A stretch of 64,000 nucleotides of DNA from the NCBI GenBank assembly GCA_023247275.1, contig JAHFGT010000001.1, forward strand, positions 6,265-70,264. The letters are read 5' to 3'. Below are positions 4,324-54,152 of this stretch, in pieces (the first letter of the stretch is position 1; every line of letters starts with the position of its first letter). Origin of the DNA: Candidatus Omnitrophota bacterium (lineage in GTDB: Bacteria > Omnitrophota > Gorgyraeia > Aquiviventales > Aquiviventaceae). Position numbers and translations under genes: made by a program. The notes under the pieces were generated by a model. It did no database searches. It saw only the letters and a program-made list of their open reading frames with translations, and was not told the origin of the DNA.

Positions 4324-4336
4324 AATGACCTGTTGC

Positions 4337-6334: not shown

Positions 6335-6364
6335 CGGATGAAGGGTCCTGAGAATGAGGTTGCG

Positions 6365-19235: not shown

Positions 19236-19636
19236 GGGCAGACCGTTGCAAAGAAGGCTTGGGGCTCGATAGGCTGATCACAATGCCACAGCCTCACCCC
19301 ACCGTCCGAAGATTCCTCGACCGTATAGAGCCGTGATCCGACCCATGGGAACCAGCGGGCAACCCAGTCGGCTGTCTTCGGATTGTCGACCAAGACCGCG
19401 GTCATGGGTCTGCAACTGCCCCACACGAGCATCGCCCAGACGGTCACGCGATACCACAAACGCGGGATCCCGCAGATCTGCATCCCGGGATACGGGGTGA
19501 GCACCTGAATAACCTCTTGCGAGACCACCCCACGAATCACGTGGCGGACCGCGGTCCCCTGCTGACACACCGGGATCGTGAGCTGTCGAGCACCGGCCCA
19601 CCCCTTCTCCACGAGCGACAGGATAGACATCGTCAA
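19232..19636 (-). CDS. Hypothetical protein
   Basis: 134-aa ORF that exactly fills the gap between two genes. It has 4-nt ATGA-type overlaps at both ends. No recognisable motif. Confidence 0.4.
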   Translation of the reverse strand: MTMSILSLVEKGWAGARQLTIPVCQQGTAVRHVIRGVVSQEVIQVLTPYPGMQICGIPRLWYRVTVWAMLVWGSCRPMTAVLVDNPKTADWVARWFPWVGSRLYTVEESSDGGVRLWHCDQPIEPQAFFATVCP

Positions 19637-27120: not shown

Positions 27121-29107
27121 GGGGATGTGTCAAGGGCTTTGAGAGATAGCCCCGCTTCCAATAGGAGAGGATCCCAAGATACTCATGGAGAATGCCGTTG
27201 GCTTGTTGGAGCGTCACACGCTTGCGAATCCACCGCTCATCAGGGCCGCGCTGGTGGGAATAAAACCGGCTGATCGGGATCGGGACATAGATCGCGCGCT
27301 TATCCGGCGCCTGCGCATTCCACACGAGCTGGACACGACGCATATGATAGGGGCTGCTCACCACGAGTACCTGCGTCCACCCTTGCTGTCCGAGAATCCG
27401 ATTCACAAACCGCACGTTGTCGAACGTGTTGGTCGCTTGGTCTTCCAGGATGATCCGCTCTGCCGGGACGCCGAGCGAGACCGCGAGCACTTTCATCACG
27501 TCGGGTTCCCGAAACGTATACATATAGCCGGAGGAAAAAATCAGGTGTTGGGCAAATCCCTGATGGTACAACTCCGCCGCCCATGCCACCCGCTCTTCGT
27601 ACCCTTGAGCCGGTTTGCCGGATTCCCCGACGCCGCCTGCAAACACGACAATCGCATCGCTGGGCACCGGGGCTTGTGAAATCTGCAGCGGCGAGGCCGC
27701 CCACCACACCACCGGCGTATAAAAGATCAGCAGATACGCCGCTAACAACGCCAGGCCGATGCGCGCGATGCGACGCCGCGCGCGATGGTACAGCATCACC
27801 AGCCGCTCCTGCCATTCCACCGGCCCGGTCGCGGCTTGCTGCCGGATCCGGTCCGCCATGAGTCGACTCATTTCCTCAATGCGCCGGTCCCACCCGTTGT
27901 CATAGGCCGCGGCGATCCGACGCTGCACTAGATGATCATCCCGGCGGCTCAACGCCTGCTCGACGTGCTGTACGAACTGCGGATAATCCTTGGCGATCTG
28001 CACCAACGGGCCGTAGCGCTCATTAAACGCTGCGACTTCTGGCAAGAAGGTGGACACCACCGGCTTGCCCAAGGCATGGTACTCGTTCAATTTTGTCGGA
28101 TAGACCGTTTTCGTGTATTCCGACTCCACGTACGGGATCATGGCAACCTCGAACGCTTGGATGTAGTGCGGCAGTTCTTCAAACGGCTTCTGGCCCAAAA
28201 AGAAAATATTGCTGGAGCCGTTGACCGGCGAGATATCGGCTTGCACCGGACCGATCAGCGCCAGCGACCACTCTTTTCGCTGGGTCGCGATGAACTGTAG
28301 CAGGTGAAAATCGACATGCCGGTGCACCCCCCCCACATACCCGATGATCGGTCGGGGGATCGTGTGCAGGTCGTCCGGCAGCCGAGGAGCGGCGTGCGCC
28401 TGTTCGAACGCCTCCAGGTTGACCCCGAAGGGAAACACGTGCACCTGCGGATTCCACTGACGGCACTTGGCCTCGAGCGCAGGCCCCTGAGCAAAGATGA
28501 GGTCACAATGTTGGATGACCGCCTGTTCGGTTCGCCGCACCTTGTGCGGATGGGGCACCAGCTCCTCGAATTCGGCGATGCAATAGTAGACGGCCAACTT
28601 GTGCTCGAGATGGGTCAAGATATCCACGGCGATTCCGGTCGGCAAGAAGGTCCAAATGATCGGGTCATGTGACCCGGTCGCACGGATCCATCGTCGGATC
28701 GCCGTCAGCAGCAACCATTGGTTGATCCAGCGAATGACGCGTGAATACGGACCGGGCAGGATGATCGGCGAATAGACCCAGAGACGATCTTGCACCTTGC
28801 GAAACCCTTTGAAACTTTTGAACCAGTTGACCAGCCGGCGTTGCAGCCGCGGCCAGTCGCGCGGCGTTGGCATGCGCACCCCAGTGTTCTCGATAAACAG
28901 GACATCGTTGCCATGCTTGGCAAACGTCGACATGATCTCCTGATGACCCTGCCACACCGAGTCCCAATCGATCGACGAGAGACAGAGGAGATGTTCGCCG
29001 GTGATCACGCGCGTCTCACACGGTCTGTGGATCCGGATGCCGGAGCCGACGCCAGTCCCACCCGCCGAGCAGTTTTTGCTCAAACACCCGCACACGGTCG
29101 TGCCCAA
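27104..29107 (-). CDS. Fusion protein: GT-B glycosyltransferase-like N-terminal region plus C-terminal DUF218 (YdcF/ElyC/SanA-like) domain
   Basis: 667 aa. The N-terminus (LCLSSIDWDSVWQGHQEIMSTFAKHGNDVLFIEN) is GT1-like. The C-terminus (AIVVFAGGV...LIFSSGY...NTFDNVRFVNRIL...VLVVSSPYHMRR) is DUF218. Confidence 0.6.
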   Translation of the reverse strand: MGTTVCGCLSKNCSAGGTGVGSGIRIHRPCETRVITGEHLLCLSSIDWDSVWQGHQEIMSTFAKHGNDVLFIENTGVRMPTPRDWPRLQRRLVNWFKSFKGFRKVQDRLWVYSPIILPGPYSRVIRWINQWLLLTAIRRWIRATGSHDPIIWTFLPTGIAVDILTHLEHKLAVYYCIAEFEELVPHPHKVRRTEQAVIQHCDLIFAQGPALEAKCRQWNPQVHVFPFGVNLEAFEQAHAAPRLPDDLHTIPRPIIGYVGGVHRHVDFHLLQFIATQRKEWSLALIGPVQADISPVNGSSNIFFLGQKPFEELPHYIQAFEVAMIPYVESEYTKTVYPTKLNEYHALGKPVVSTFLPEVAAFNERYGPLVQIAKDYPQFVQHVEQALSRRDDHLVQRRIAAAYDNGWDRRIEEMSRLMADRIRQQAATGPVEWQERLVMLYHRARRRIARIGLALLAAYLLIFYTPVVWWAASPLQISQAPVPSDAIVVFAGGVGESGKPAQGYEERVAWAAELYHQGFAQHLIFSSGYMYTFREPDVMKVLAVSLGVPAERIILEDQATNTFDNVRFVNRILGQQGWTQVLVVSSPYHMRRVQLVWNAQAPDKRAIYVPIPISRFYSHQRGPDERWIRKRVTLQQANGILHEYLGILSYWKRGYLSKPLTHPHATAD

Positions 29108-29867
29108 GAATCTCCGTGCGACATAACAGCAACGGATCCCGGCCCGGACGATTCAGATCGTGGTGGCTGCACACGCCGAGTTGATAGCCCGCACGAGCCG
29201 CGGCATCCCTGACGCGTTGATCCACCGACCCATGCGGGTATGAGACCGTCGTGACCGGCCGCTGGACCACCTGCTCTATCCACCGGCGGCTGTCGCGCAA
29301 CTCCTGGTCAACATCCTGATCGTTTAACGTCGCCAACCGGCGATGCGTCATGCCATGAGAGCCGATCGAGCAGCCTGGTACGTCGGCCAACCGACGCAGC
29401 TCGGCCATCGTCAGGTAGGCTGGCTGCCCGGTGGTGACATACTGCGGGACGATGAACACGCTAAACGGCAGCGAGAGGGCGTGGAGGATGGGGGCGGCGA
29501 TGGTCCAGGTATCGCGAAAGCCGTCATCAAACGTGATCGCGACCTCCATAGCGTTGGCGGGCGTGGACCAGCCTGGCTCGAGCGCAATGGTGTTCACCTG
29601 TGGATAGCGAACGAGAGCCGCCATCTGTTTCCGGAAGCGTTCCGGGGCGATGCTGATTCCATACGGGTCTGATGGTAGTCGGGTGCCGACCGCATGGTAG
29701 AGGAGAATTCGCAGGCCGGCTGCTGGCTGCCCGGCGCGTGCCAGCGAATAGATCTCAGCGATTCCTCTTGAAACCGCACGCTTCCAACTGATCGCAGTCA
29801 GCGCAGCCACCGTCTCATGGCCTGATTGGCCCCCCAGGACACCGCCTTGGTCAAGGCCCATTCCCAT
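29016..29867 (-). CDS. Polysaccharide deacetylase (CE4)
   Basis: VAITFDDGFRDTWTIAAPIL...GSHGMTHRRL. Confidence 0.8.
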   Translation of the reverse strand: MGMGLDQGGVLGGQSGHETVAALTAISWKRAVSRGIAEIYSLARAGQPAAGLRILLYHAVGTRLPSDPYGISIAPERFRKQMAALVRYPQVNTIALEPGWSTPANAMEVAITFDDGFRDTWTIAAPILHALSLPFSVFIVPQYVTTGQPAYLTMAELRRLADVPGCSIGSHGMTHRRLATLNDQDVDQELRDSRRWIEQVVQRPVTTVSYPHGSVDQRVRDAAARAGYQLGVCSHHDLNRPGRDPLLLCRTEILGHDRVRVFEQKLLGGWDWRRLRHPDPQTV

Positions 29868-30820
29868 TCGCCCAGATATTGGATCCGCTCTCCGCCAAAT
29901 CCTTGTTTGAAATGGTTCACACCGGCGGCTGACGGCTGGTCCGGGCTGATCCCTCCGAAATCGAGTCGGCTGGCTCCGCGCTGTTTCAACACATCAAACA
30001 AGGTCGAGATCATCGCGTAGGCCGCGCTCACTCGCCTGCCCTGCGTCCCGGTGGCCGCCGTCATGTAGAACACCTTGTCCCCGATCCGCAGCGTCAGGCA
30101 GGCGGTCACCGGCACGCGGGCCTGATACCCGATTAACACCAGACAATTGGACTGAAACTGGTCAGCGAGGGCTTGCAGGCTCCCCAACTCCACCGCTGGT
30201 AGCCTGGCCTGCTTGACGCGAGACATCTGCGCATACAGGTGCGCGAAATCGTCCAGCAACGCGGAGGAACGACCCATGGTCCATGTGAGTCCTGCGGCCT
30301 GCGACTGCTTCACATAGTACCGGTGCTTGCGGGTCATGGCTGAGCGCAATTCGTCGAGCGACCGGGTGAGGTCCAACTGAATCGTGTAGCCACTGGTCAC
30401 TGGTACGCTGGGTCGCCCGCAGACACGGGTCAAGCCGGCCGCCGCCTCAGCACACACCCGGTGATGACTGGAAAATCTGGCGTAGACCAGCCGGTGATGG
30501 CGACGAAATGATTCCAACCACTCTGACACCAGCGCTCCGGACATCTGGCCGTGACAGTTTGGAAATCCGATCACCGGCCCACCAGGCGTCCAGACCAAGA
30601 AACGATTGAAGAGGAGCTGTTTCTTGAGGACCTGCAGACAGCCAAGCGGCTGGCGGTGCTCATCGATCGCCTGCCATCGCTCAGGTTCCCATCCAGATCG
30701 GCGCTTGTATTCGCCCCAGGCATACGATTGGAACGGGTTGGCGTCCGTGGCTTGGCCGAGCAGCTGGTCCCACGCCGCGGGTGTGGTGTCTTGCGCAGAA
30801 CAGCGAACCCATTCTACCAT
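29798..30820 (-). CDS. FemAB-family / GNAT-fold (Acetyltransf_6) transferase
   Basis: About 340 aa starting MVEWVRCSAQD. The QSYAWGEYKRRSGWEPERW N-terminus and C-terminal GNAT-like region resemble FemX/FemAB-type aminoacyl transferases. The maximal ORF extends to 30889. Confidence 0.5.
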   Translation of the reverse strand: MVEWVRCSAQDTTPAAWDQLLGQATDANPFQSYAWGEYKRRSGWEPERWQAIDEHRQPLGCLQVLKKQLLFNRFLVWTPGGPVIGFPNCHGQMSGALVSEWLESFRRHHRLVYARFSSHHRVCAEAAAGLTRVCGRPSVPVTSGYTIQLDLTRSLDELRSAMTRKHRYYVKQSQAAGLTWTMGRSSALLDDFAHLYAQMSRVKQARLPAVELGSLQALADQFQSNCLVLIGYQARVPVTACLTLRIGDKVFYMTAATGTQGRRVSAAYAMISTLFDVLKQRGASRLDFGGISPDQPSAAGVNHFKQGFGGERIQYLGEWEWALTKAVSWGANQAMRRWLR

Positions 30821-32808
30821 AGGAATCTCACGCACCAGAGTGCGGTTACTCCTCGGCGAGCCGATGTATCGGTCGCGAGATCCGGCCACTGGAAACAGCG
30901 CAATCCCTGCTGGTGCAACGCGGCTCTCGCCTGCTGTAGCTGGCCTGCTGCCCGAAAGGGATAGCCATACGGAACGACCCAGGCCGGCAGCGTGGGAAAT
31001 ATCGGCTGAACACCGACCCTGGCCAACAGGTGTCCCACGAACTGATACAGCTGTTGACGTCGTGTGGTTTCTTGGATCGGATCGACCAGATGAATGTCGT
31101 CAGCCAACAGCGCAGAGGGCCGAGCGGATTCTGGCAGCGTCGTCTCATCGCGGGCGACAGGCCAGAGCGGACGCGTCGAGTCGAGTAGCCATTGGAATCG
31201 GCGCTCACCAAGCCATGGCACCGCGCCCCGCACGGCTTGCTTTATACGGTACCGGACTGGCACATGCCCATCAAACCGGGGCTGCGGCGGCAGGTCAAAT
31301 GAAGAATCCGCCTGCACCGCTAACCCAGCACCATTTGGCAGGGGGATCGTCTTACGGAAGCTAAAAATTCCTAGCGGCGCGCGGGTCCCGAGCCATGCGC
31401 CTGCAGCGTCTTTGCTCAAGAACCCGTGCGCGTTGTCTTCAATGAGCACGGCTCTGGTGCGTCGAGCGTACGCCTCAAACAGAGCCAGGTCTTGTGGGAA
31501 TCCAAAATAGTTGACGGCAATGATCGCGCGCGCCGGTGGCAGCGTTGCTGGATCATCGGCCAGCGCCAGCTTTTCGTTGACCCGATAGAACACCGGCCGC
31601 GCGCCAACCGCGTGCAGGCTTGACAACAGTTCCCGGCAGATCAGCTCAGGCATCAGTACCGCGTCGCCAGGACGAACCTGAATCAGCCGAAGGGCTTGCG
31701 TCAAGGCCCATCGGCCATAGTTAAAGTAGCGCAGCCGCACCCCAGGCCCGAGCAGCGCCTGAATCGACCACGGCTGCTCTGCTCTGGGCAGGACATAGAC
31801 CGATCGGGATCGGGGACAGCCACCGATCTCCGATTGTTTGATGGAAGAGATCGGTGGCTGTCCCCGATTCCCGGTGATTCGGATCAAGACCTGACGGGCG
31901 CACCGGCTGGCAAGCCAGGGCCATCGATTCGCAACGAACGACTCGAGCTGGAGCGGATACGGATGTGGCGCCAGACGCAGGTCCGGATGAAACCACAACT
32001 CAGAATATCCCGCAACAATCTCACACCGGCCGCCACGAAACGATCGCCACCGCTGTGTCCACGCTCGAGCCGACAAACGGTTCAGCTCCATGATCCCGGT
32101 GGATCCTCGACGATGAAACCGTTTGCCGAAGAGCCGATACACGGCGCGCAGCCCGAGCGCCGGGTTCAGATTATGGAGTTCGATCAAACACCGCGATTGC
32201 AACACTCGATCGCATTCCTCCTGGAACTTGGCGAACACAGTCTCTGGCAGATGCTGCAGTGTCTGCACACTCCACAACCCGGTGATGGTCGCATCGCGAA
32301 TCGGCAGCGCGGCCGCATCCGCGCAGACCAGCACCACACGAGGATGGGAGCCGAGCACCTGTTGCGCGAGCCGCAGATTGCCCAGCGATAGATCGACCCC
32401 GAGGATCCGTGCCCCGCTGGTCTGGGATAACCAATGCCATCCGTAGCCGATTCCCACATCCAAGATCCACTGGTCTGCCGCCCAGCGACGGTAGAATGCG
32501 CTGGCCTGTTGAGCCATGACCGGCAGACAGTGGTGTTGAGCGGCCCTGCGGAGCAATGCGTCACGCGTGGCATGCTGCTGCGTCATGGCTTGAGCCTCTC
32601 GAAATCGGATCTCTGACGCTTGCGCAGGACGATGACCAGGCAACAGCATCGGGATTCCATCGAGAATCGGATACCGCTGGTCGCATCCTGCGCAGCGAAT
32701 CCGGTCGGCAGACTCGAGCGCCAATTGGGCGTGGCAGGCTGGACAGGCCAGCACCTCTGAGAGAGCCTGTTGCAGCGGTTCGCTCTCAAGCAGCGTGTGG
32801 GTGTCCAT
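30814..32808 (-). CDS. Tri-domain protein: Trm112-like zinc ribbon + class I SAM methyltransferase + DegT/DnrJ/EryC1-like PLP aminotransferase domain
   Basis: CPACHAQL...CAGCDQRYPILDGIPMLL is a Trm112/DUF343 ribbon. ILDVGIGYGWHW is methyltransferase motif I. The C-terminal GDAVLMPELICREL...AIIAVNYFGFPQD...VLIEDNAHGF...FSFRKTIPLPNGAGLAV is colinear with DegT/ArnB-type aminotransferases and retains a Lys. The maximal ORF extends to 33009. The Met at 32808 gives a TGATG junction. Confidence 0.7.
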   Translation of the reverse strand: MDTHTLLESEPLQQALSEVLACPACHAQLALESADRIRCAGCDQRYPILDGIPMLLPGHRPAQASEIRFREAQAMTQQHATRDALLRRAAQHHCLPVMAQQASAFYRRWAADQWILDVGIGYGWHWLSQTSGARILGVDLSLGNLRLAQQVLGSHPRVVLVCADAAALPIRDATITGLWSVQTLQHLPETVFAKFQEECDRVLQSRCLIELHNLNPALGLRAVYRLFGKRFHRRGSTGIMELNRLSARAWTQRWRSFRGGRCEIVAGYSELWFHPDLRLAPHPYPLQLESFVANRWPWLASRCARQVLIRITGNRGQPPISSIKQSEIGGCPRSRSVYVLPRAEQPWSIQALLGPGVRLRYFNYGRWALTQALRLIQVRPGDAVLMPELICRELLSSLHAVGARPVFYRVNEKLALADDPATLPPARAIIAVNYFGFPQDLALFEAYARRTRAVLIEDNAHGFLSKDAAGAWLGTRAPLGIFSFRKTIPLPNGAGLAVQADSSFDLPPQPRFDGHVPVRYRIKQAVRGAVPWLGERRFQWLLDSTRPLWPVARDETTLPESARPSALLADDIHLVDPIQETTRRQQLYQFVGHLLARVGVQPIFPTLPAWVVPYGYPFRAAGQLQQARAALHQQGLRCFQWPDLATDTSARRGVTALWCVRFLW

Positions 32809-33722
32809 TACCGTCGCACCCGCGCCAGATTGAGCAGGCCTAAGACGCACGTCTTCCAGGCGAATGGATCTTGCTCTAGCGCCTGCCCAAAGCTGTGCCA
32901 GGCGCGGGCATGGTCGCCCTGTTGCATCAAGGCATGTGCCGCGCCGCGGATCGCCGCCGCGCGCTGCCGCCGCATGGCATACCGGTATCGGAGCGATCGA
33001 TTCGTCCACTGTTGGTAGTGCGCGTCCAACACCGCCAGCACATGGTCGCGATGCTCCTCGATCCGGCTGGTCACGCCCAGCGGATGGACCCGGTAGACGC
33101 CGAGCGGTTCATGCAGGTAGGTGAATCGACCGCCGGCTTTGGCCAGGCGCAACCATAGATCATAGTCTTCGACGCCGTTGATTCGCAGCTCCTCGGAAAA
33201 CCCGCCCACGTCGAGGACAAGCCGCCGCCGCACCACGGTCGCGGACGTTGACAGGCAGTTCCCGCGAAACAAGAGCTGATCGTATCGTCGATGCGGCCCG
33301 TACCGCAGCCGCGATCGATGGCCATTCTCTCGCACCAACCACTCGTCATGACACACAAGGTCGATCGCGGGATCGTTCTCCAACACCGCGCTGACCCGCT
33401 CTAACTTGCGGTCCACCCAATAGTCATCCGCATCCAAAAACGCCACGAACCGACCGCTCGCCGCCTGGATCCCGGTGTTGCGCGCCGCGCCGATGCCCTG
33501 ATGTGGTTGAGTGCACAGCCGGATGACGACGTCCGGATGGTCGCGTCTCCAGGCGTCGGCGAGATCACGCGTTCGGTCGGTTGACCCGTCGTCGACCACT
33601 ACGACTTCATCCGCTCGACAGGTCTGCTGCTGGACAGAATCCAGCGCCTGGGTGATGAACCGCTCAGCGTTACGGGCAGGAATGATGACGCTATACAAGG
33701 ACATCGGCGACGGCAGCCGCAA
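32808..33722 (-). CDS. Family-2 glycosyltransferase
   Basis: YSVIIPARNAERFITQALDSVQQQ...VVVVDDGSTDRT...FLDADD. Confidence 0.8.
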   Translation of the reverse strand: MRLPSPMSLYSVIIPARNAERFITQALDSVQQQTCRADEVVVVDDGSTDRTRDLADAWRRDHPDVVIRLCTQPHQGIGAARNTGIQAASGRFVAFLDADDYWVDRKLERVSAVLENDPAIDLVCHDEWLVRENGHRSRLRYGPHRRYDQLLFRGNCLSTSATVVRRRLVLDVGGFSEELRINGVEDYDLWLRLAKAGGRFTYLHEPLGVYRVHPLGVTSRIEEHRDHVLAVLDAHYQQWTNRSLRYRYAMRRQRAAAIRGAAHALMQQGDHARAWHSFGQALEQDPFAWKTCVLGLLNLARVRR

Positions 33723-35556
33723 CGGTCCGGGTCCCGGCAGAGAATAACTGCTCGCGCATGTAGGCTCTCTCAGCGGGTGATGGCATACCCTGGTGTGGAT
33801 GCTGGCACCAGCGCTCGAGCGCTGTCCGCAGTTCGCCGATCGATCCGAATCGCGGAATCGCCATCACAGCAGCCAACGCCGCGCTGTTAAAACCGGTCGG
33901 CAGCCATTGCCACACCGGTTTGCCGAGCACGAACGCCTCTTCAGCGACGGTCGAATACGTAAACAACACCAGGTCCGCCGCACGCACATCGTCATCGAGC
34001 GGCGCCTGGCTGATAGTGATGCGCTCGTTCCATTTGGTAATGGCCGGGTGGCGACTGATGGGCTGCAAGGGATGCGGTCGCAGGCGGATGCGAATCTGCG
34101 CCATGCCGTCTGTCGCTGCGCACACCGCATCGACTAACTCCAGTTCAGTCGCCAGGTCAAATCCAAGTGCGACGAGAATCTCGAGCGGCCGAGCGCCACC
34201 CGCTGCCAAGGATACCGGACCGCGCGTCAAGGCAATCGCTCGCAGATACTCATAGCGCGGGGTGCCGGTCGGGACGAGCTGCTGACGGGAATACCCGCAG
34301 GTGCGCAGCACCCGCTGGGCCCATGTGCCCATCGTGCACACCATCGCTGGATGCGGAACCGCCACGCCATCCGGCCGCCCCTGAAACTCGAGCGTCGGGT
34401 GCAGCAATAAGAACGTTTTTTCGTGGCTATAGCTTGCGTGTTGGACCGCCCACGAAGTCGTCCCGACCGCCGCGCGCTGCGCGCCCTCATAACAGGCCCG
34501 GGCGTGCGGAAAATGTTCCAGGAAGCTGAGCATCAGTGTCGGCCGATATCGCTGGCACGCACGCTGGGTGGCCAGCGCGACCACCCCCCCATGGGGCAGA
34601 CTGGAATCCAATGTCCCTTGGATCAGCTTGTCAGAGAACAGCGGATAATAGTTCAGCCCGTCCCGCCAACAGGCCGCACGTAACGCCCCAGACTGGTGGA
34701 ATTGCCGCACGATCCACCACGGACGCAGATCCATGAGCGCTGTGCATACCTCCTGCCACCGCAAGAGCGACTGGAGCATCACAACCTGGTCCGTGGCCTG
34801 GGACGTAGGCTGCGCTTGGTGCGGATCATACCAGGCCAACCATCCGCAGGAGATCTGCTGGCTACGAAGCTCGGTTGGCAACTGCCCAAAATATTTGTCA
34901 ACGAGCTTCCCGGTCGTTTGATCCCACCGCACGCTCCAACTCCAAAACCCGCACAACGCCACTTGAAACGATCGACCTGGAAGGCTGCGGCGGCGCAAGC
35001 GCCTGCAGTCGCGCAAGAGCCGGGCTCCATACCGCAGGCGCGTGGCGATGGCTCGGATCATGTCCACCCATCCATGGGACCGACGCTGGCTTCGTTCCAC
35101 CACATGAAATCGGGTTTTCAGTACCGCCACGATTCGAGCTGGGGCGCCATCGAGAATCAGGCGATCGCATCGCGCCTGGGCCGCGGTCGCGCAAATTGTC
35201 AGAATCGCGATGAGGTCGTTAAAGGTTGGGTCGACCTCGCAATCTTTGAACGTGACCGGATGAAACCACCATCGACTCGCGTGCCCTGGCACGGTGAGTC
35301 GCTGACGCAACGTCTGCCCGTCACGATCGGTAGCCAGACCCAGCCGTGCGACCAAGTGGACATACAATCGACGGGCCGTTGTCCGCACCCCCTGTGAAGC
35401 GACCCGTGCCCGGACCACGGTATGGGGAGATCGGACGGCTAACGCTTCCTCTTGAATCGGTGGGAGAAAACTGAGGATCGCGGCGGACGTAACAAACGCC
35501 TGTCGCGGCGGCTCGCGCCAACAGACCCAGACGGACCGCTGGCCAGCCGCCATCAC
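33691..35556 (-). CDS. Large TagF-like (CDP-glycerol glycerophosphotransferase family) or capsule-type transferase, tentative
   Basis: 621 aa. The C-terminal RLRPHP...ADLVLFTYSTVAEEAFVLGKPV resembles the TagF/Glyphos_transf motifs (IKPHP...DLLITDYSS...KPIIFY). Confidence 0.35.
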   Translation of the reverse strand: MMAAGQRSVWVCWREPPRQAFVTSAAILSFLPPIQEEALAVRSPHTVVRARVASQGVRTTARRLYVHLVARLGLATDRDGQTLRQRLTVPGHASRWWFHPVTFKDCEVDPTFNDLIAILTICATAAQARCDRLILDGAPARIVAVLKTRFHVVERSQRRSHGWVDMIRAIATRLRYGARLLRDCRRLRRRSLPGRSFQVALCGFWSWSVRWDQTTGKLVDKYFGQLPTELRSQQISCGWLAWYDPHQAQPTSQATDQVVMLQSLLRWQEVCTALMDLRPWWIVRQFHQSGALRAACWRDGLNYYPLFSDKLIQGTLDSSLPHGGVVALATQRACQRYRPTLMLSFLEHFPHARACYEGAQRAAVGTTSWAVQHASYSHEKTFLLLHPTLEFQGRPDGVAVPHPAMVCTMGTWAQRVLRTCGYSRQQLVPTGTPRYEYLRAIALTRGPVSLAAGGARPLEILVALGFDLATELELVDAVCAATDGMAQIRIRLRPHPLQPISRHPAITKWNERITISQAPLDDDVRAADLVLFTYSTVAEEAFVLGKPVWQWLPTGFNSAALAAVMAIPRFGSIGELRTALERWCQHPHQGMPSPAERAYMREQLFSAGTRTVAAAVADVLV

Positions 35557-37469
35557 GCACCCGAAGGGACGACGTCGGTCGTCGGATTGACCGCGAGGAT
35601 CACCTTGAGATGGGTGCGGGCGCGCGCCAGTTGCCAGGCATGTTCAAATGCCTGCATCGGCAGTGTGTGTTGGAGCAACGCCGTGGTGTCGATCGTTGGC
35701 AGCAGGTTAATCGCTTCTTCGAAATCTACGCCAGCGCTTGCCACCGAGCCGATGAGGGTTTTGTCAGATCCTACGATGTCTTCAAAATTGTACGGCCGGC
35801 GGGCATACGGCAACCCGAGCAGCAAGATCGTGGATCCCGGCGCAGATTGGCGCAAGATCCTCTCAAGCGAATCAGGATCTCCGGTTGCCTCAATGATCAC
35901 GCTAACATCGCGAAGCGAATCCAATCCCTGCGCACTCCTCATGTTGGTGGCCGTCAGGAGCCTGAGCCGATCAACGCGCTGATCCACAACGATCACGTGA
36001 TGACCTCGACGCGCCAGCACCTGCGCGACCAGATGCCCGATCGGCCCGGCTCCGATCACCGCGCAGCTCTTCGGTCCACTAGGGCCCCAGGCAGATTCCA
36101 ATCGCCGGAGCCCTTTCAAGACGACAGCGAGCGGTTCGCAGAGTGCGGCGGCTTTTAAACTCACCTGGTCTGGAAGCCGATGGACGCACCGAGCCGGCAC
36201 GATCAGATAGTCGGCATAGCCGCCGTGATGGCCGATGACCCCTACCTCCTGGCGCTCAGGACACTGAACCGTGTCGCCGGCGCGACAGACAGCGCACTCT
36301 CCACAGCCTTGAAGGCACTCGACCACGACCCGATCCCCCTCAGCCCACTCAGTGACCCGAGATCCGCTCGCCGCGATCACCCCAGAGCATTCGTGTCCTG
36401 GCACGACCGGATAGCTGGCTTGTCCTGACCGGTAATAGCCTAACGTCCCGTCGAGGATGTCCAGGTCCGTCGCGCACACACCTTCGTACGCCACCCGGAT
36501 CAACACCTCGCTGGGCTTGAGCAGAGGCAGTTCGAGCTGCTCAAGGCTGGCCTGCCCTGGCCCACGAATCACGACCGCTGGATACGACACGCGAAACAAC
36601 AGCCGGGCCTGCGCCGACTCGTTCGATGCCTGATGCCCGTTCCATAACCCGGTCGCGGTCCCGACAAACTTCTGCCATCGAAACTGTGCGATCTCAGCGC
36701 CTCGGGTCTGGAGGCAACGGCCATGCCACGCATGGGCCAGATCGCCGATCAGATAACGCAGTTCGCGCCAGGCTTCCCCGGTGACATCCCAGGGCTGTTT
36801 CAGCCCGAGCGTCTTGGCCGCCTGCGCCTCTCGGTAATATCGTCGAAACACCTGCGGCCAGGTTTCGCGATGGAGATGGCAGACGCTGGCCGCTGGTTCA
36901 TAGATGACCTGGTACCCTTGCTGCATCCAATGCTTGGCCCATTCGATATCCTCAAGACCTGGCAACCGCTCATCAAACGGATGCTGCTCCCACAGCTCTC
37001 GCCGCAGCGCCGCGTTGGCGTTATTCGCGAAAAACCGCGGAGACGTCAGGACCTGTCGACAGCCTCCAAACGTCCGCCGAAAGTCACGCGCCTCGCCCAG
37101 CTTGGAGTCCTGATGACCTTCCTGCCGCCCATACACCATGGCGGTCTGCTCCTCGCGAAGCGCAGCAATCAGATGTGTCAACCAGTCAGGGCCTGTCGGC
37201 AGCGCATGCGCAGAAACGATGACCAGATACCGACCCTGACTGTTGCGGATTCCGACATTGGCAGAGTAGCCGAAGGTGAAGTCCTGTTGCCGAATCCGTA
37301 CGAGCCGGTCAGCGCGCTCCTGCGCGATGGCGCGCGTGCGGTCGATCGACCCTGAGTCCACGACAATGGTCTCAACATCCTGGTAGGTCTGCGCGGCGAG
37401 TCGGTCGAACAACGCCGGCAAGAGGGCTTCTTCGTTATAGGTGCGGATAATAATCGAGGTCTCAGCCAT
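35553..37469 (-). CDS. Fusion protein: N-terminal family-2 glycosyltransferase plus C-terminal zinc-dependent medium-chain dehydrogenase (MDR/ADH)
   Basis: The first roughly 280 aa are GT2 (MAETSIIIRTYNEEALL...VVDSGSIDRT). They are followed by GVCATDLDILDG...GHECSGVIAASG and the Rossmann motif VIGAGPIGHLVAQV. The maximal ORF extends to 37643. Confidence 0.75.
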   Translation of the reverse strand: MAETSIIIRTYNEEALLPALFDRLAAQTYQDVETIVVDSGSIDRTRAIAQERADRLVRIRQQDFTFGYSANVGIRNSQGRYLVIVSAHALPTGPDWLTHLIAALREEQTAMVYGRQEGHQDSKLGEARDFRRTFGGCRQVLTSPRFFANNANAALRRELWEQHPFDERLPGLEDIEWAKHWMQQGYQVIYEPAASVCHLHRETWPQVFRRYYREAQAAKTLGLKQPWDVTGEAWRELRYLIGDLAHAWHGRCLQTRGAEIAQFRWQKFVGTATGLWNGHQASNESAQARLLFRVSYPAVVIRGPGQASLEQLELPLLKPSEVLIRVAYEGVCATDLDILDGTLGYYRSGQASYPVVPGHECSGVIAASGSRVTEWAEGDRVVVECLQGCGECAVCRAGDTVQCPERQEVGVIGHHGGYADYLIVPARCVHRLPDQVSLKAAALCEPLAVVLKGLRRLESAWGPSGPKSCAVIGAGPIGHLVAQVLARRGHHVIVVDQRVDRLRLLTATNMRSAQGLDSLRDVSVIIEATGDPDSLERILRQSAPGSTILLLGLPYARRPYNFEDIVGSDKTLIGSVASAGVDFEEAINLLPTIDTTALLQHTLPMQAFEHAWQLARARTHLKVILAVNPTTDVVPSGA

Positions 37470-38424
37470 GGGCGGATGTCTGCGCAACCGGTCGGTGTAA
37501 GACGTCCAGCAGATTTCGGATCGTGCGTTCGTGCACCGCAGTCGCGGCTTGGGGGCTGCTGTTCGCGTTGTGCGGAGCCAGCCAACAGTTGGGCAGTCGA
37601 CGGAGCGGGCTGTCCGCCGGCAACGGCTCAACGTCGAACACATCCAACGCCGCGCCGGCGATTCGTCTTTGCTCCAGGGCGCGCACCAACGCGGATTCCT
37701 CTATCACCGGCCCGCGCGAGGTATTCACGATCACAGCGGTCGGTTTCATGCGCGCGAACGCCGACTCGTCCATCAAATGAAACGAGGTGGGGTTCAGTGA
37801 CGGGTTCAGACTGATACAATCGGCCTCGCGCAGGAGCTGGTCACGTGCCACCATCTGGATCCCGGTACTGGCGACAAATGGCTGTGGTAGCTCTACCGGA
37901 TCATGTCCCAACACCCGCATGCCGAACGCGACCGCCCGACGCACCACCGCCTTGCCGCAATTGCCGACGCCGATCACCCCCAATGTGCGCTCCCGCAGCG
38001 AGACGAGTTCCGGCTTGATCCATTGGCCCTCATGCATCTGCGCATTCATCTCGGCCAGCCGACGGGCAAACAGCAGCAGATATCCCATGACCGTATCAGC
38101 CACTGGTTCACTAAACGCGTTCGGCGTATTGCACACTACGATCCCGCGTTGAGCCGCCGCCTCAAGGTCAATCGAATCGATTCCAGTGCCCCACTTTGAG
38201 ATGACCTTCAGCCGTGGTGCAGCCTCCAGCACCTGGCGCGTCAGCCGATCATCCCCGCAGATGATCCCGTCGATATCACCCACCACCGGCAACAATTCAG
38301 CCTCGCTCAGCCGTTCCTGGACGCGCGCGACAATGACCTCGCATCCAGCGGCTTCCAACGCTGCGCGGTACCGGTCAATCACCGATATGGCATACGGAGC
38401 AGAGATCAGCACCCGGTCGCTCAT
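37462..38424 (-). CDS. D-isomer-specific 2-hydroxyacid dehydrogenase family protein
   Basis: GIVVCNTPNAFSEPVADTVMGYLL and the NAD motif TLGVIGVGNCGKAV. Catalytic R/E/H region. Confidence 0.85.
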   Translation of the reverse strand: MSDRVLISAPYAISVIDRYRAALEAAGCEVIVARVQERLSEAELLPVVGDIDGIICGDDRLTRQVLEAAPRLKVISKWGTGIDSIDLEAAAQRGIVVCNTPNAFSEPVADTVMGYLLLFARRLAEMNAQMHEGQWIKPELVSLRERTLGVIGVGNCGKAVVRRAVAFGMRVLGHDPVELPQPFVASTGIQMVARDQLLREADCISLNPSLNPTSFHLMDESAFARMKPTAVIVNTSRGPVIEESALVRALEQRRIAGAALDVFDVEPLPADSPLRRLPNCWLAPHNANSSPQAATAVHERTIRNLLDVLHRPVAQTSAHG

Positions 38425-39200
38425 TGCGCCGCGGCCGCCTGTCTGTAGCGAGCGATCAGCGGATCGTTCGCCAGCATCGCTTCAACGCTGGGCACATCAT
38501 CCGGCACATCAACCGCCTGGCTGAACCGATCGGTCTCAACCAAGCGCACGCGATACCCATGCTCCAAGAGCCGCAGCATATCGATCGACTCAGCCTGCTC
38601 CAATGGCGTTGGTGGCAGCGTAGCGTAGCGCAGCAACAGGTCCCGCCGGAATGGAATGACGCACACCTGCTTGTAATAGCGCGGATGGCTTGGCAATTCA
38701 CCGGGCGATGATCGGCGAGCCGGAATAACCGCCCGCGAAAAATACAGCGCGTCCCCGCGCGCTGACTGCACCACTTTAATCGTGTTCCAATCCTGTAACT
38801 CGCGCGCCGATCGGATCGGCGCGACCAGATTCACACACCCGACCGCCGGCTCGCGCGCCAACGGCTCGATGGCCGCATCGATCATTTCCGGGACGATCAA
38901 TGGTTCATCACCTTGGACCATCACGATGAGGTCCGCCGTCAACCCCTGCGCGGCCTCAGCGACTCGATCGCTCGCACGCTCATGAGCGGACGAGGTCATC
39001 ACCGCGTGCCCCCCAAACCGCTCAACCGCGGCGGCGATGGCGTCATCACACGTCGCCACCACCACATCGTCCAACGAGTCGCACAGCCGGGTGCGCCAAT
39101 AGACATGTTCGATCATCGGCCGGCCGGCGATCAGCGTCAGTGGTTTGCCAGGGAATCGGGTTGACCCAAGCCTGGCCGGGATGATCGCCGCGATCTTCAT
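38421..39200 (-). CDS. kdsB: 3-deoxy-manno-octulosonate cytidylyltransferase (CMP-Kdo synthetase) family
   Basis: MKIAAIIPARLGSTRFPGKPL...QGDEPL...YFSRAVIP. Colinear with E. coli KdsB. Confidence 0.8.
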   Translation of the reverse strand: MKIAAIIPARLGSTRFPGKPLTLIAGRPMIEHVYWRTRLCDSLDDVVVATCDDAIAAAVERFGGHAVMTSSAHERASDRVAEAAQGLTADLIVMVQGDEPLIVPEMIDAAIEPLAREPAVGCVNLVAPIRSARELQDWNTIKVVQSARGDALYFSRAVIPARRSSPGELPSHPRYYKQVCVIPFRRDLLLRYATLPPTPLEQAESIDMLRLLEHGYRVRLVETDRFSQAVDVPDDVPSVEAMLANDPLIARYRQAAAAQ

Positions 39201-40198
39201 CCGGTCTCCATCGGTCGGCGAGCCACCACCCGGACATGCGAGCTAAGCCGATGCTGACTCAGGAAACTTTGGAAGGCCTGCCGAGTGGCATCATTCGCCT
39301 GCACCAGCGACCTCACAAACCGGGGCATGGGAATCGTCGGATTCTCTTGTACCATGTTCGCCACGATATCGACGTCCAGTCGCCCAGGCGTCGACAGCTC
39401 AACCAACTCGAGGCCGGCTCGCTCCATCAGCCGCTGCAGACCGTGAATCGATAACAGATTGAGATGGTGCGGCGGATGGATGCTCTTCGACCGGTCCCAT
39501 AACACCTGCAAGTCAAAGCCGCTGATGGTGAGCGTCGTCAGGACCAGTAGCCCACCCGGACGCAGCACCTGGCACGCCGCGGTCACAAACTGCAACGGAT
39601 CGAACGGATGCTCCACCACCTCAAACGCGGTGGCAACATCGACCTGACATTCGTCCGGTGTGACCGCCTCCAGCGGTTTCTCAATGACGCGGAATCCGCG
39701 CTGGCGGCAGACGGCGGCCAATGTCGGTCCTGGCTCAATACCCAACACCGTGGAGAACCGATCCAGCCGTTGGATCTCTTCCAAGAACACCCCATAGCCG
39801 GATCCGATGTCGACGAAACTGGAGGCGCGCTCCGCGTGCCGGCCCACGAACTCCTGCACCAACTGGGCGCGCGGGGCAAACAGGTTGCGGCGACGCGATT
39901 CAGCGGTCTGCCGAAAAAAGTCGGTGCTCCAAAATTTCACGGACGCTCCCTCGCGGTAGAATACTGCGAGTTGATCTGCGCTCGGACGCGGCGACACATA
40001 CAGCGAGTCGCACGCGGCACAGCTCACATACGAAAACCCCAGCTTCTCAAATGCTGGCGTCTGCTGCGCAGACCCGCAGCCTGGGCATGGGACCGCCGTA
40101 AACTGTCCGGACGCGTGTGCCAACGACTCCGCATCACGCCGCGCCAGCGTCAGATAGTCGTTAAACAAATCCAGGGGTCGGATATCGGCTTCTTTCAT
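39197..40198 (-). CDS. SAM-dependent methyltransferase with N-terminal Cys4 zinc-binding domain (PF08421-like)
   Basis: CPGCGS-x18-CAAC followed by methyltransferase motif I FVDIGSGYGVF. Confidence 0.8.
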   Translation of the reverse strand: MKEADIRPLDLFNDYLTLARRDAESLAHASGQFTAVPCPGCGSAQQTPAFEKLGFSYVSCAACDSLYVSPRPSADQLAVFYREGASVKFWSTDFFRQTAESRRRNLFAPRAQLVQEFVGRHAERASSFVDIGSGYGVFLEEIQRLDRFSTVLGIEPGPTLAAVCRQRGFRVIEKPLEAVTPDECQVDVATAFEVVEHPFDPLQFVTAACQVLRPGGLLVLTTLTISGFDLQVLWDRSKSIHPPHHLNLLSIHGLQRLMERAGLELVELSTPGRLDVDIVANMVQENPTIPMPRFVRSLVQANDATRQAFQSFLSQHRLSSHVRVVARRPMETG

Positions 40199-40315: not shown

Positions 40316-41356
40316 CTAGCGGGGTTCAGGTGCCCAGGAATCTGAATTGTCAATGCAGGCTTTGCAGACCGGGTTCTCTGCGTATCGTCCTTGCTGATGG
40401 AGGATGCGCAGCTGCTGCATTTTCTCGCCGTTCCAAATGGACTTGACGTCTGCCGTATGGGCGTTGCCCATCACCAGATGTTCCGCGGCTCGCATATTGC
40501 AGCACGGCAACACCGACCCATTGGCCCGGACGGTCACCCGCTGAAACGGGCTTGGGCATCGCGGCGTGATCGTTGGCGTCCGCGGAGCCCCGGTGGTGAA
40601 GTGGACCTGCTTTTCCTCCCGCATGGCGCCATCAAACGGGTTGTGCAAATTCTGAATCGAAAACAGATCGGCCTTGTCTTCCCAATAGTCCAAGAACGGT
40701 TCCAGCTCGTGCAGATTGTCGGCCATCCGCAAAAAGGTCAGTTTCAACAGCGGTAACCGGACGCCCAGCTCTTTGCGGATCTCCAAAAACCGGTGGATCG
40801 CTTTGAGCAGCTTGGCGTACTCCCCGCCGACACGCACCTTCGCGTACGTCTCGGCTGAGAACGCATCCACGGAAAATGACAGCTTGGTCAGCCCGGCCGT
40901 GATCAATTCCTGAGTCAACTCATCGGTGAGGAGTAAGCCATTGGTATTGAACATCACCTCGACCGCGCCAGCTTCGCGCGCGCAGCGGACGAATTGGGGC
41001 AGGTCTCGTCGAATCAGCGGCTCATTAATGTAGTTAAGATTCACCGCGCGCAACCCGTGCGTGACTCCATCCGTGACGATCTGTTTGAAAAATTCAAACT
41101 CCATCCAGGAGCTTTTGCCCTTCCCATAAGTGGCCTCAGCGCTCCAGGTACACATCGGGCATTTCAGATTGCAGGAGACGTTCAGCTCGAAATCGATCTG
41201 GACCGGATACGATCGTTCCAGCTCCAGCTTGGTCGTCTGCTCCCATTCTGTGCGATACTCAGCATACCCAGGGCCGATCTCTTCAATCAACACCCGGTGC
41301 GGATCTTCATGCGGACTGTACAACGATTTGCGCCAACCTTTATGCACGTACGCCAT
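40316..41356 (-). CDS. Radical SAM protein with C-terminal SPASM/twitch-like Cys cluster
   Basis: CNLKCPMC (CxxxCxxC) at about residue 70. The C-terminus has CPSPFQRV...LPCCNM...CKAC. Confidence 0.8.
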   Translation of the reverse strand: MAYVHKGWRKSLYSPHEDPHRVLIEEIGPGYAEYRTEWEQTTKLELERSYPVQIDFELNVSCNLKCPMCTWSAEATYGKGKSSWMEFEFFKQIVTDGVTHGLRAVNLNYINEPLIRRDLPQFVRCAREAGAVEVMFNTNGLLLTDELTQELITAGLTKLSFSVDAFSAETYAKVRVGGEYAKLLKAIHRFLEIRKELGVRLPLLKLTFLRMADNLHELEPFLDYWEDKADLFSIQNLHNPFDGAMREEKQVHFTTGAPRTPTITPRCPSPFQRVTVRANGSVLPCCNMRAAEHLVMGNAHTADVKSIWNGEKMQQLRILHQQGRYAENPVCKACIDNSDSWAPEPR

Positions 41357-43202
41357 CGTCTCCCCTTGTCAATGCGATGATCGATCCGACGCGGGCCGGC
41401 TCCAGTCTCGACGCCGGCTCAGGCTGAACGATTGCAGGACCTCCCGCCTGTAACGCCCAGTACGCGCTGCGGCGCGACACGAGCTGTTCATGGGTCCCCT
41501 GTTCGGCGACTCGGCCATGCTCCAGGACCACGATGTGATGCGCCTTGAGGATCATCGACAGCCGGTGCGCCACAATAATCACGGTGCGGCCCTGGCTGAT
41601 TCTCAGCATCGCCTGATGCACACGCCGCTCGGACTCTTGGTCAAGGGCGCTGGTCGCTTCATCAAACAGCAATACGTCAGGTCGGCGCAACACCGCTCGC
41701 GCAATGGCGATCCGTTGCCGCTGGCCACCGGACAGCTTTAGACCTCGATCGCCAACGATGGTGTCGTACCCCTGTGGCAAGGCGTGGATGAACTCATCCG
41801 CATCCGCCTGTTGCGCCGCCCAGCGAATGTCTGATTCGCTGGCCGATGGGTGCGCGAACGCAATATTGTCCGCGATCGACGCGTGAAAGATGAACGTGTC
41901 CTGGCTCACGAACCCGATCCGGCTTCGCCACGAAGCGATATCGAAAGTGTTGAGATCAACCCCATCCAGGGTCACTCGACCCGCGGTGGGATCGTACAGG
42001 CGAACCAGCAGATCCACGATCGTCGACTTTCCTGCCCCTGACGGGCCAACGATGACTGTGGTCTGTCCCACGGGAAACGTGAGGGTCACCTCAGACAGCA
42101 CCTCCACCCCCTCGGCGCCCGGATAGGCAAACCGCACATGGTCCAACCGAACCGCCTCCTGAATGCCTGGGCATGGCAGACCGGCTGGTTGATCGTGCTG
42201 CGGCCTGGGCAACTCTAGCAGCTGCTGCACGGTGCGCACTGAAGCGACCTCAGCGCGCAGCTTGATCAGTTCTTTGTTGAGCCCACCGACCAGCGGCAAC
42301 AACCGGGCCAAGATCACGACCACCATCACCACTACCGACAAGAGATTCTCTGCGGTGGACGACCCGTGATTCAGCACCATCACCGACACCATCATGACGA
42401 CCGCGGCCGCCACCTCGCCCAACGGCTGCGCCAACACGGGCAGGATCTGGAGTCTGAAATTGGCCTGGCTCATCTGATCCGCCATGCGCTGAAACCCGGC
42501 CTGGAGCCGATCTTCTGCGGAGAAGACTTTGACCTGCCTGATCCCAAGGATGGCCTCGGCCGTGAGGGCGGTAAAGTCGCGAACCAGCCGCTGCCGGATC
42601 GATGCCAGTCGCCGAGACGTGAGCGCGAGCCGCTGCAATCCGATCGTCAACACCGCAAACGTGAGCGTCGCAGCACAGGTGGCCTGCCAGGAGATGCAGA
42701 TGAGCAGGACGTAGAGCGCCGCGATAGTGGTCGTAATGGACAACAGCGACAGGACGGTGGAAACCGCTTGTCCGGCGATGCCGGTCTCACCAAACAGATC
42801 GTTGATCAGCCGGCCTTGCCGTCGATCCAGGAAAAACTGAAACGGCGAGTGCAGGTACCGGTCAAAGATTCTAGTCCGCAGATCCTTCACCGTCCCGAGC
42901 TCAATGCGCAAGCCGAGCAGTCGGCTGGCATACCCCAACAGGTTTTTCAGGATGATGGCGGCCAGTAAGACGCCGGCAATCCATTGCACCTGCGCGTGGC
43001 GCGGGCCATTACCGGCCACCCACCGACTCAGCGCCAGCACACTGTTTGGGAGCGGCTGCCGACCGGTCGTCAGCGGCATGAACAGCGGCACAAATAAGCT
43101 AATACTCGCTGATTCGAGAATCGCGCTCCCGGTTCCAAGCGCCACACACGCCACTAGCAGCCACCGGTACGGCCGCACCAACCGCCACACGGCCTGCATC
43201 AC
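41340..43202 (-). CDS. ABC exporter, fused permease + ATPase (MsbA / lipid A-flippase-like)
   Basis: 620 aa with six TM helices, then Walker A GPSGAGKST, signature LSGGQRQRIAIARA and Walker B LLFDEATSALD. No N-terminal peptidase domain. Confidence 0.9.
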   Translation of the reverse strand: MMQAVWRLVRPYRWLLVACVALGTGSAILESASISLFVPLFMPLTTGRQPLPNSVLALSRWVAGNGPRHAQVQWIAGVLLAAIILKNLLGYASRLLGLRIELGTVKDLRTRIFDRYLHSPFQFFLDRRQGRLINDLFGETGIAGQAVSTVLSLLSITTTIAALYVLLICISWQATCAATLTFAVLTIGLQRLALTSRRLASIRQRLVRDFTALTAEAILGIRQVKVFSAEDRLQAGFQRMADQMSQANFRLQILPVLAQPLGEVAAAVVMMVSVMVLNHGSSTAENLLSVVVMVVVILARLLPLVGGLNKELIKLRAEVASVRTVQQLLELPRPQHDQPAGLPCPGIQEAVRLDHVRFAYPGAEGVEVLSEVTLTFPVGQTTVIVGPSGAGKSTIVDLLVRLYDPTAGRVTLDGVDLNTFDIASWRSRIGFVSQDTFIFHASIADNIAFAHPSASESDIRWAAQQADADEFIHALPQGYDTIVGDRGLKLSGGQRQRIAIARAVLRRPDVLLFDEATSALDQESERRVHQAMLRISQGRTVIIVAHRLSMILKAHHIVVLEHGRVAEQGTHEQLVSRRSAYWALQAGGPAIVQPEPASRLEPARVGSIIALTRGDDGVRA

Positions 43203-54138: not shown

Positions 54139-54152
54139 TCTCGGCTGGGCGG

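Follow-up and report, generated by a model that had tools for sequence, protein, structure and literature searches.

The fusion gene and its two domains

A window of 64,000 nucleotides from Candidatus Omnitrophota bacterium (assembly GCA_023247275.1, contig JAHFGT010000001.1, positions 6,265 to 70,264; the coordinates below are those of the window) carries on its minus strand a translationally coupled run of genes for a methyltransferase, a KdsB-like cytidylyltransferase, a phosphoglycerate dehydrogenase (PGDH)-like dehydrogenase, a fusion protein and a 620-residue protein of the TIGR04326 type. The fusion, encoded at 35553-37469 (638 residues plus stop), joins an N-terminal glycosyltransferase family 2 (GT2) domain to a zinc-dependent medium-chain dehydrogenase/reductase (MDR) in one open reading frame (ORF). 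Each half falls in a known superfamily; the gene is a member of a large family, and its context points to a new pathway for a sugar acid activated with cytidine monophosphate (CMP).

Translation gave a frame that is unbroken up to a single terminal stop. A hidden stop or frameshift was looked for in the 638 codons and none was found, which rules out a split into two genes. The maximal ORF reaches upstream to 37643; the start was placed at 37469 because the ATG there overlaps the stop codon that ends the gene upstream (ATGGCTGA) and homologs share the N-terminus M-x-E-T-S-I-I-I-R with the fusion. An independent ENA metagenome contig encodes an identical protein, and an 18.7-kb ENA contig holds a second member of the 90% cluster. 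A frameshift or an assembly chimera is excluded by the identical protein on the independent contig, together with homolog clusters of the same architecture at 94-100% coverage.

These clusters were obtained in a search of 5.8 billion proteins, which returned at least 120 of them. Identity to the fusion is 53-63% in the 120 listed, with 94-100% of the query covered, and Pfam detects both a GT2 and an MDR family in every one except P0065. When each GTDB species was scanned through one genome, 233 species from many phyla were found to carry the fusion, so the coupling is not uncommon in sequence space, contrary to the original prediction. The carriers include Nitrospira, Desulfobacterales, Acidobacteriota, Gemmatimonadota, Chloroflexota/Dehalococcoidia, Planctomycetes, Verrucomicrobia and Elusimicrobia, as well as Rhodospirillales (the cultured Paramagnetospirillum and Magnetospirillum) and one metagenome-assembled genome (MAG) of Thermoplasmatales. 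In an alignment of 120 representatives the catalytic positions of both domains are kept in 119-120 of the 120 and, judged by this conservation, the fusion is under strong purifying selection. In the distant GT2-MDR relatives P0135 and P0129 the zinc ligands are lost (VRPGD for VCATD, GREF for GHEC) or the MDR part is truncated; some lineages can therefore dispense with the dehydrogenase half or have put it to another use. A paper on this fusion or its gene cassette was sought in the literature and none was found.

The GT2 (GT-A) catalytic core (residues 1-222, 36804-37469) matches Glycos_transf_2 (PF00535, residues 5-160, E 2e-24, 86.7 bits against a cutoff of 23.3) and Glyco_tranf_2_3 (PF13641, residues 4-215, 46.8 bits against 27). 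An exhaustive HMMER scan with this part alone gave 362 representatives (50% identity level) at E <= 1e-30; wider motif counts refer to the best 150 of these, 148 of them readable at the motif position. In the predicted nucleotide-binding motif DSGSID (37341-37358; D38, D43), D38, S39, G40 and D43 are kept in all 120 representatives of the fusion family and S41 in 119. The putative catalytic base motif of inverting GT2 enzymes, E173-D174 (36948-36953), is present in 120/120 (ED in 142/148 of the wider clade), as is the histidine pair H198-L-H200 (36870-36878), a candidate for metal or phosphate binding (HxH in 137/148). The DXD position, by which GT2 enzymes coordinate metal and diphosphate, is occupied by S86-A87-H88 (37206-37214), aligned to DCD of K4CP and DSD of GalT1. 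This SAH is found in 117 of the 120 representatives, with S and H kept in 119. The domain is thus a GT2 member by Pfam, as predicted, but not a canonical one. S-[A/G/V]-H recurs in 144/148 of the best representatives, a sequence signature that defines a large "SxH" GT2 clade of at least 362 representatives. A sequence search of the PDB with the GT2 half returned generic GT2 matches only (the chondroitin synthase K4CP, GalT1, PcManGT and DPMS); RfbN-type rhamnosyltransferases are 26% identical over the whole domain.

The MDR domain (residues 295-628, 35586-36587), of the polyol/sugar type, was delimited by Foldseek and by the Pfam families ADH_N (PF08240, residues 319-434, E 2e-28, 99.4 bits against 23.5), Glu_dehyd_C (residues 441-625) and ADH_zinc_N (residues 476-590), the latter two also above their cutoffs (PF16912 and PF00107, 54 and 40.4 bits against 34.9 and 31.8). 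All the predicted catalytic zinc ligands were found, namely H359 and E360 of the motif GHECSG (G-H-E at 36390-36398) with C332 and E445, kept in 119-120 of the 120 representatives. The site is by sequence of the Cys-His-Glu(-Glu) type of polyol and sugar dehydrogenases. The four cysteines of a structural zinc lobe, CGECAVCRAGDTVQC (36261-36305; C389, C392, C395, C403), are invariant in 120/120. The dinucleotide-binding motif GAGPIG lies at residues 473-478 (36036-36053; G473, G475, G478). An acidic residue at the end of beta-2 of the Rossmann fold favours nicotinamide adenine dinucleotide (NAD). Since D496 (35982-35984) holds this position and is present in 119/120 representatives, the sequence suggests that the domain prefers NAD over NADP. 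The GHECSG ligands and the GxGxxG motif are therefore as originally described, and the uninterrupted frame with both domains above their Pfam cutoffs upholds the claim of one ORF with a GT2 domain and a complete MDR.

The AlphaFold2 (AF2) model is confident (predicted local distance difference test, pLDDT, 88; predicted template modelling score, pTM, 0.81). It contains a GT-A core at residues 1-222, mostly above pLDDT 90, two long helices within 226-277, a disordered linker at 279-292 and an MDR fold at 295-628. The helical tail of the GT2 module (residues 223-278, 36636-36803; helices 226-249 and 253-277) is also found in stand-alone relatives, with D243, R264, G270 and G274 common to those on plasmids (see below). 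Stand-alone homologs can be aligned up to about residue 290, short of the boundary between the linker (residues 279-294, 36588-36635; pLDDT below 50 at 279-292) and the MDR. A Foldseek search of the PDB with the whole model matched only the MDR half, with no solved two-domain chain; the neighbours were HpsP, RspB, sorbitol/xylitol dehydrogenase, L-threonine 3-dehydrogenase (TDH) and galactitol-1-phosphate dehydrogenase, at target TM-scores (TMt) of 0.83-0.87. A transmembrane segment was looked for in the fusion and none was found. Taken together, the sequence data indicate a genuine single protein with two apparently catalytically competent domains.

The MDR domain reached no NCBIfam equivalog cutoff. 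The best model was the scyllo-inosose 3-dehydrogenase IolM (151 bits against 450), and this identity was rejected, as was that of TDH (133 against 380). Many homologs bear the JGI name BchC, which was also rejected; TIGR01202 gave 56.5 bits against 291, and the fusion lies nearly always in polysaccharide clusters for the cell surface and never in a photosynthetic context. The name is an annotation artefact.

Conserved neighbours and domain partners

The gene directly upstream of the fusion (37462-38424) encodes the PGDH-like D-2-hydroxyacid dehydrogenase (2-Hacid_dh, 2-Hacid_dh_C; best PDB match, P. horikoshii PGDH 1WWK), and its stop overlaps the fusion ATG. It is preceded by the KdsB/KpsU-like cytidylyltransferase (38421-39200), a CTP_transf_3 protein that among PDB entries is matched best by E. 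coli KpsU 1GQ9 (E 2e-50) and which passes the NCBIfam kdsB cutoffs (TIGR00466, 163.5 against 155.2; NF009905, 292.8 against 255). Downstream, the start of the TIGR04326 gene (33691-35556) overlaps the fusion stop. Its 620-residue product matches no Pfam family and was assigned to TIGR04326 ("surface carbohydrate biosynthesis") by a weak NCBIfam match and by the JGI names of its homologs. It was modelled with a GT-B fold (pLDDT 88.5, pTM 0.90) whose Foldseek neighbours are the WecB/NeuC epimerases, the CDP-polyol transferases TagF/TarL and BshA; on this model the protein is a candidate transferase for an activated sugar.

The neighbourhood was compared across 80 fusion loci, 54 of which have at least 3 kb on both sides of the fusion; in high-GC loci the genes were called by a gene picker weighted by third-position GC (GC3). 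A KdsB-like gene (about 55% identity) is present in 38 of the 54 loci, and 31 of those 38 also have the PGDH-like gene (about 59% identity). Where both occur, the order is almost always cytidylyltransferase, hydroxyacid dehydrogenase and fusion, with overlapping ends; in Magnetospirillum it is hydroxyacid dehydrogenase, fusion and cytidylyltransferase, as separate genes. An apparent triple fusion with the cytidylyltransferase in locus L022 and an "overlapping" cytidylyltransferase in Magnetospirillum were discarded as stop-to-stop ORF artefacts, the genes being separate. Carriers of the cassette are also found among Chloroflexota and archaeal MAGs.

A second class of context, 15 of the 54 loci, has neither gene. 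Here an ATP-grasp ligase (PylC/Ter-like) is found, usually with a weakly mutarotase-like protein directly upstream (as in L019, L029, L037, L039 and L065); these partners suggest that a sugar in free form and a carboxylic acid are intermediates. Over all 80 loci, the ligase occurs in 26 and the mutarotase-like (aldose-epimerase-like) gene in 23. KdsA was found in none of the 80 fusion loci, KpsF in one and NeuB in seven. In these loci the genes that supply 3-deoxy-D-manno-octulosonate (Kdo), namely KdsA, KdsD/KpsF and KdsC, are thus not members of the cassette, and the absence of KdsA and scarcity of NeuB argue that the sugar acid is not made by a local synthase.

The same partners were found with SxH domains lacking the dehydrogenase. 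Stand-alone SxH GT2 proteins (about 320 residues, 36-38% identical, with the helical tail) are encoded on four plasmids, three of Rhodobacterales and one of Pararhizobium. On those of Rhodobacterales the gene is followed immediately by those for a PseF-like cytidylyltransferase, which it overlaps, and a PGDH-like dehydrogenase. In Pararhizobium the same pair lies about 2.4 kb upstream of the GT2 gene, with two short-chain dehydrogenase/reductase (SDR)-like genes in between. GalE and Maf/MptE-like proteins are encoded nearby, with an SDR and an SMP-30 lactonase in two of the plasmids. As a side observation, several very large MptE/Maf-like proteins (up to 1579 residues) adjoin the trio of GT2, cytidylyltransferase and PGDH-like genes in L088 (Thalassovita plasmid pAge77), L090 and L091, and pAge77 also has a complete KpsF-KdsB-KdsA set, so that a single cluster encodes two cytidylyltransferases.

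In the best 150 representatives from the scan with the GT2 part, fusions join the SxH domain to an MDR in 24, to CTP_transf_3 in either order in three, and to a PGDH-like dehydrogenase in one (P0149, 49% identical to that of the window). Further fusions in this set are to a metallo-beta-lactamase (MBL) domain closest to L-ascorbate-6-phosphate lactonase (UlaG-like; three or four), to a cyclase/arylformamidase-like domain (five), to a methyltransferase (three) and to other glycosyltransferases (GT2-GT2 and GT2-GT9; several). Neighbourhood and domain fusion therefore independently tie the SxH GT2 to the cytidylyltransferase and the 2-hydroxyacid dehydrogenase.

An additional locus, L093, was found through its TIGR04326 protein. 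Its downstream part is syntenic with the window (TIGR04326, GT2, methyltransferase, DegT, FemAB, deacetylase, GT1-DUF218, ligase), and its cytidylyltransferase is 53% identical to that of the window. At the position of the PGDH-like and fusion genes, L093 encodes a pyruvate aldolase (HpcH/HpaI), a 2-hydroxyacid dehydrogenase of divergent sequence, a phosphatase of the HAD type and an extended SDR; an aldolase and a phosphatase of this type were sought in the 80 fusion loci and found in none. This is read most simply as two non-orthologous gene sets that each provide the acid sugar activated by the same cytidylyltransferase, a reading that places the fusion in precursor biosynthesis and not in polymer assembly.

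Further upstream in the same operon of the window lies the class I S-adenosylmethionine (SAM) methyltransferase gene (39197-40198, Methyltransf_23), which occurs in 13 of the 80 loci. Directly before it, and still in this operon, come a radical SAM/SPASM gene (40316-41356) and the gene of a fused ABC exporter of the MsbA-like kind (41340-43202). The pairing of radical SAM-SPASM, methyltransferase and cytidylyltransferase genes recurs in L095.

The surrounding region, from about 9 to 64 kb (9000-64000) on the minus strand, comprises some 55 kb of co-directional surface-glycan genes, among them those for many GT1, GT2 and GT4 enzymes, for eight or more methyltransferases of class I and for one PMT_2 protein. 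It includes two GT9 heptosyltransferases (19633-21860), an O-antigen ligase (21751-23010) and a WecA-like initiating transferase, labelled as GT4-family and with a C-terminal CoA_binding_3 domain (23062-24885), and looks like a combined supercluster for lipopolysaccharide (LPS) core and O-antigen. The edge of the glycan region is marked by housekeeping genes at 985-9022 (GalT-like, Fmt, PriA, fatty-acid hydroxylase, UDG and an MGDG-synthase-like GT28).

A second CMP-sugar module occupies 51181-55929. It encodes a synthase of the NeuB family (54943-55929), a CTP_transf_3 protein extended at its N-terminus (54153-55175), an aminotransferase of class IV (52796-53851), a TIM barrel resembling xylose isomerase (51954-52994) and an SDR (51181-51957). 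The window encodes three proteins of 620-665 residues without Pfam matches and without mutual BLAST similarity: the TIGR04326-like one (33691-35556), one at 44074-46038 and one at 47275-49272 that weakly resembles the LIC12162 family. Methyltransf_23 genes precede the last two, directly for 44074-46038 (46035-47297) and one gene removed for 47275-49272 (50135-51220). Moreover, a single long ORF at 30814-33009 runs through a Cys-rich segment, a methyltransferase of class I and an aminotransferase domain of the DegT type, for which L093 has separate methyltransferase (310 residues) and DegT (360 residues) genes; the overlap of the ORF's 5' end with the GT2 gene upstream of it (32808-33722) makes an internal true start probable. 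Beside the cassette in three loci, namely the window (29016-30889), L093 (11898-13786) and L094 (13586-15483), a FemAB-like gene (aminoacyl transfer) precedes one for a polysaccharide deacetylase. The pair is a hint that the glycan contains an amino sugar decorated with an amino acid.

A proposed role in sugar acid activation

The explanation that we favour, drawn from gene context and held with a probability of roughly 40%, is that the fusion is a bifunctional cytoplasmic enzyme of a mobile four-gene cassette that makes a CMP-activated acidic sugar, which is then installed on glycans of the LPS/O-antigen type. The GT2 domain would take a sugar from a nucleoside diphosphate (NDP)-sugar and release it or hand it to water or a small acceptor, as PseG and NeuC do. 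The fused MDR would use NAD+ to oxidize the free sugar or polyol, for example from an aldose to an aldonolactone or aldonate, and the 2-hydroxyacid dehydrogenase would oxidize C2 to give a 2-keto (ulosonic) acid. The KdsB-like enzyme would form the CMP ester, and the downstream GT-B protein would install the sugar, which the many methyltransferases of the cluster may decorate. The order of free sugar, lactone and acid is supported by the recurring lactonase partners (SMP-30, UlaG-like), by the carboxylate-using partners (2-hydroxyacid dehydrogenase, ATP-grasp) and by the mutarotase-like neighbour. Specified to this degree, as a hitherto undescribed route that needs no aldolase and leads, by GT-A sugar release and two NAD-dependent oxidations, to a 2-ulosonic or other acidic sugar activated with CMP, the proposal becomes speculative, and we would call it rather improbable in its full form.

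The original prediction had instead placed the redox step at the point of glycosyl transfer. The gene context argues against this and fits a CMP-activated sugar acid precursor better, because of the coupling to KdsB-like and PGDH-like genes, the fusions of the same type of GT2 to those enzymes and the replacement in L093. The fusion is thus probably a biosynthetic enzyme rather than a transferase that acts at the polymer level and modifies the residue it attaches, a preference that also rests on a GT2 domain 53-63% identical across phyla.

Several points weigh against the biosynthetic explanation. The GT2 domain may be an ordinary transferase, since it has retained the ED base motif found in true transferases and is 26% identical to the RfbN type; no GT2 enzyme is known to have hydrolysis of an NDP-sugar as its physiological role. 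The MDR domain matches polyol dehydrogenases, TDH and alcohol dehydrogenases about equally and not specifically the MDR aldose 1-dehydrogenases. About 30% of the loci have no cytidylyltransferase within 10 kb, and the mutarotase-like call is weak, its Pfam score being below the gathering cutoff and its profile search giving no PDB match. The cytidylyltransferase passes the KdsB cutoffs, so its substrate in diderm hosts could be cellular Kdo. Biochemistry for any member of the fusion family was sought in the literature, and none was found.

The strongest competitor, doubtful but to be taken seriously, is a conventional GT2 that adds a sugar from an NDP-sugar to a lipid-linked glycan, with the MDR oxidizing or reducing the residue or the donor to give a keto sugar for tailoring (methylation, amination) or a polyol-linked unit. 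The Pfam match, the conserved ED motif and nucleotide-binding Asp residues, and the similarity to RfbN rhamnosyltransferases all suit such an enzyme, as do the GT2-GT2 and GT2-GT9 fusions of the SxH domain and a window rich in glycosyltransferases, methyltransferases and a DegT aminotransferase able to use a keto sugar. However, it leaves unexplained the coupling and fusion, across phyla, to cytidylyltransferase, 2-hydroxyacid dehydrogenase and lactonase-like domains, as well as the aldolase, phosphatase, SDR and divergent 2-hydroxyacid dehydrogenase that replace the pair in L093. The GT2 domain is also conserved to an unusual degree for an acceptor-specific transferase, and MDR polyol dehydrogenases act on small free substrates and not on glycan-bound sugars.

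Like the DXD-less GT-A sialyltransferases of GT29 and GT42, the SxH GT2 might itself be a transferase that uses the CMP-acid made by the cytidylyltransferase next to it, the MDR and the PGDH-like enzyme making or tailoring the donor. The S-A-H in place of DXD, the three invariant histidines, the fusions to CTP_transf_3 in either order and the overlapping GT2 and cytidylyltransferase genes of the Rhodobacterales plasmids would fit. We nevertheless judge this unlikely, since 15 of the 54 fusion loci have no cytidylyltransferase within 10 kb, separate candidates for a CMP-sugar transferase are present (the TIGR04326 GT-B protein, the Maf/MptE-like proteins) and the sequence is that of a classical GT2 and not GT29- or GT42-like. 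A glycosyltransferase fused to a cytidylyltransferase need not share its CMP-sugar either, as in C. jejuni CgtA-NeuA. Lastly, an artefactual fusion, whether by frameshift, by assembly chimera or by read-through from one gene into another, or a dead remnant in one domain, to which only the few distant relatives such as P0135 and P0129 lend colour, is already refuted by the continuous frame, the identical protein on independent contigs, the same architecture in 120 clusters and 233 species and the conserved catalytic residues of both domains.

If the cassette does make a new CMP-activated sugar acid by this aldolase-free route, its product would be a bacterial nucleotide sugar of a new class, one that horizontal transfer had carried across many phyla, and the cassette would add to bacterial glycobiology an ulosonic acid formation based on dehydrogenases rather than on a phosphoenolpyruvate (PEP) aldolase. 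It would also provide the first function for the large DXD-less GT2 clade, and would explain unassigned CMP-linked metabolites and surface-glycan components of environmental bacteria. A preprint (bioRxiv 10.64898/2026.04.20.719630) reports unassigned CMP-linked sugars in Magnetospirillum gryphiswaldense, and related genera carry the fusion; a link to the cassette is at this stage a lead only. Even on a conservative reading, a widespread mis-annotation as BchC is corrected and a four-gene module is defined.

Comparison with known systems

The GT2 half shares with the SpsA, RfbN and WbbL types the GT-A fold, the Asp residues of DSGSxD, the ED base motif and a C-terminal H..ESW..R..RE signature. 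It differs from them in the invariant S-A-H, the conserved 55-residue helical tail and the attached dehydrogenase, and its genomic partners are enzymes of sugar acids and CMP activation and not genes for NDP-sugar synthesis. The sialyltransferases of GT29 and GT42 (CstII) are GT-A enzymes without DXD that employ His in catalysis and CMP-sugars as donors. The fusion domain resembles them in a GT-A-like fold without DXD close to a CMP-sugar synthetase, but it is a clear Pfam GT2 with no detectable sequence relationship to either.

The dehydrogenase half has the same zinc site, four-Cys lobe and GxGxxG plus Asp as the Zn-MDR polyol and sugar dehydrogenases (sorbitol/xylitol dehydrogenase, TDH, galactitol-1-phosphate 5-dehydrogenase, L-idonate 5-dehydrogenase, the DHPS dehydrogenase HpsP, RspB). 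Unlike these, it sits behind a GT2 domain and scores below all equivalog cutoffs. In CDP-ribitol synthesis by TarI/TarJ and the fused Bcs1, an MDR reductase is paired or fused with an IspD-type cytidylyltransferase. There too an MDR and a cytidylyltransferase make an activated precursor of a surface polymer, but the product is a CDP-polyol and no GT domain is fused, whereas the cytidylyltransferase of the cassette is KdsB-type.

The closest parallel in logic is that of the Kdo and nonulosonic acid pathways (PseG/NeuC, then NeuB/KdsA, then PseF/NeuA/KdsB and a transferase), in which, as proposed here, a free sugar is converted to a 2-keto acid, activated with CMP and transferred; the cytidylyltransferase of the cassette is itself a close relative of KdsB/KpsU. 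The proposed hydrolase would be a GT-A protein and not a GT-B protein like PseG and NeuC, and most of the cassettes have, in place of a nearby PEP-dependent aldolase-type synthase, two NAD-type dehydrogenases.

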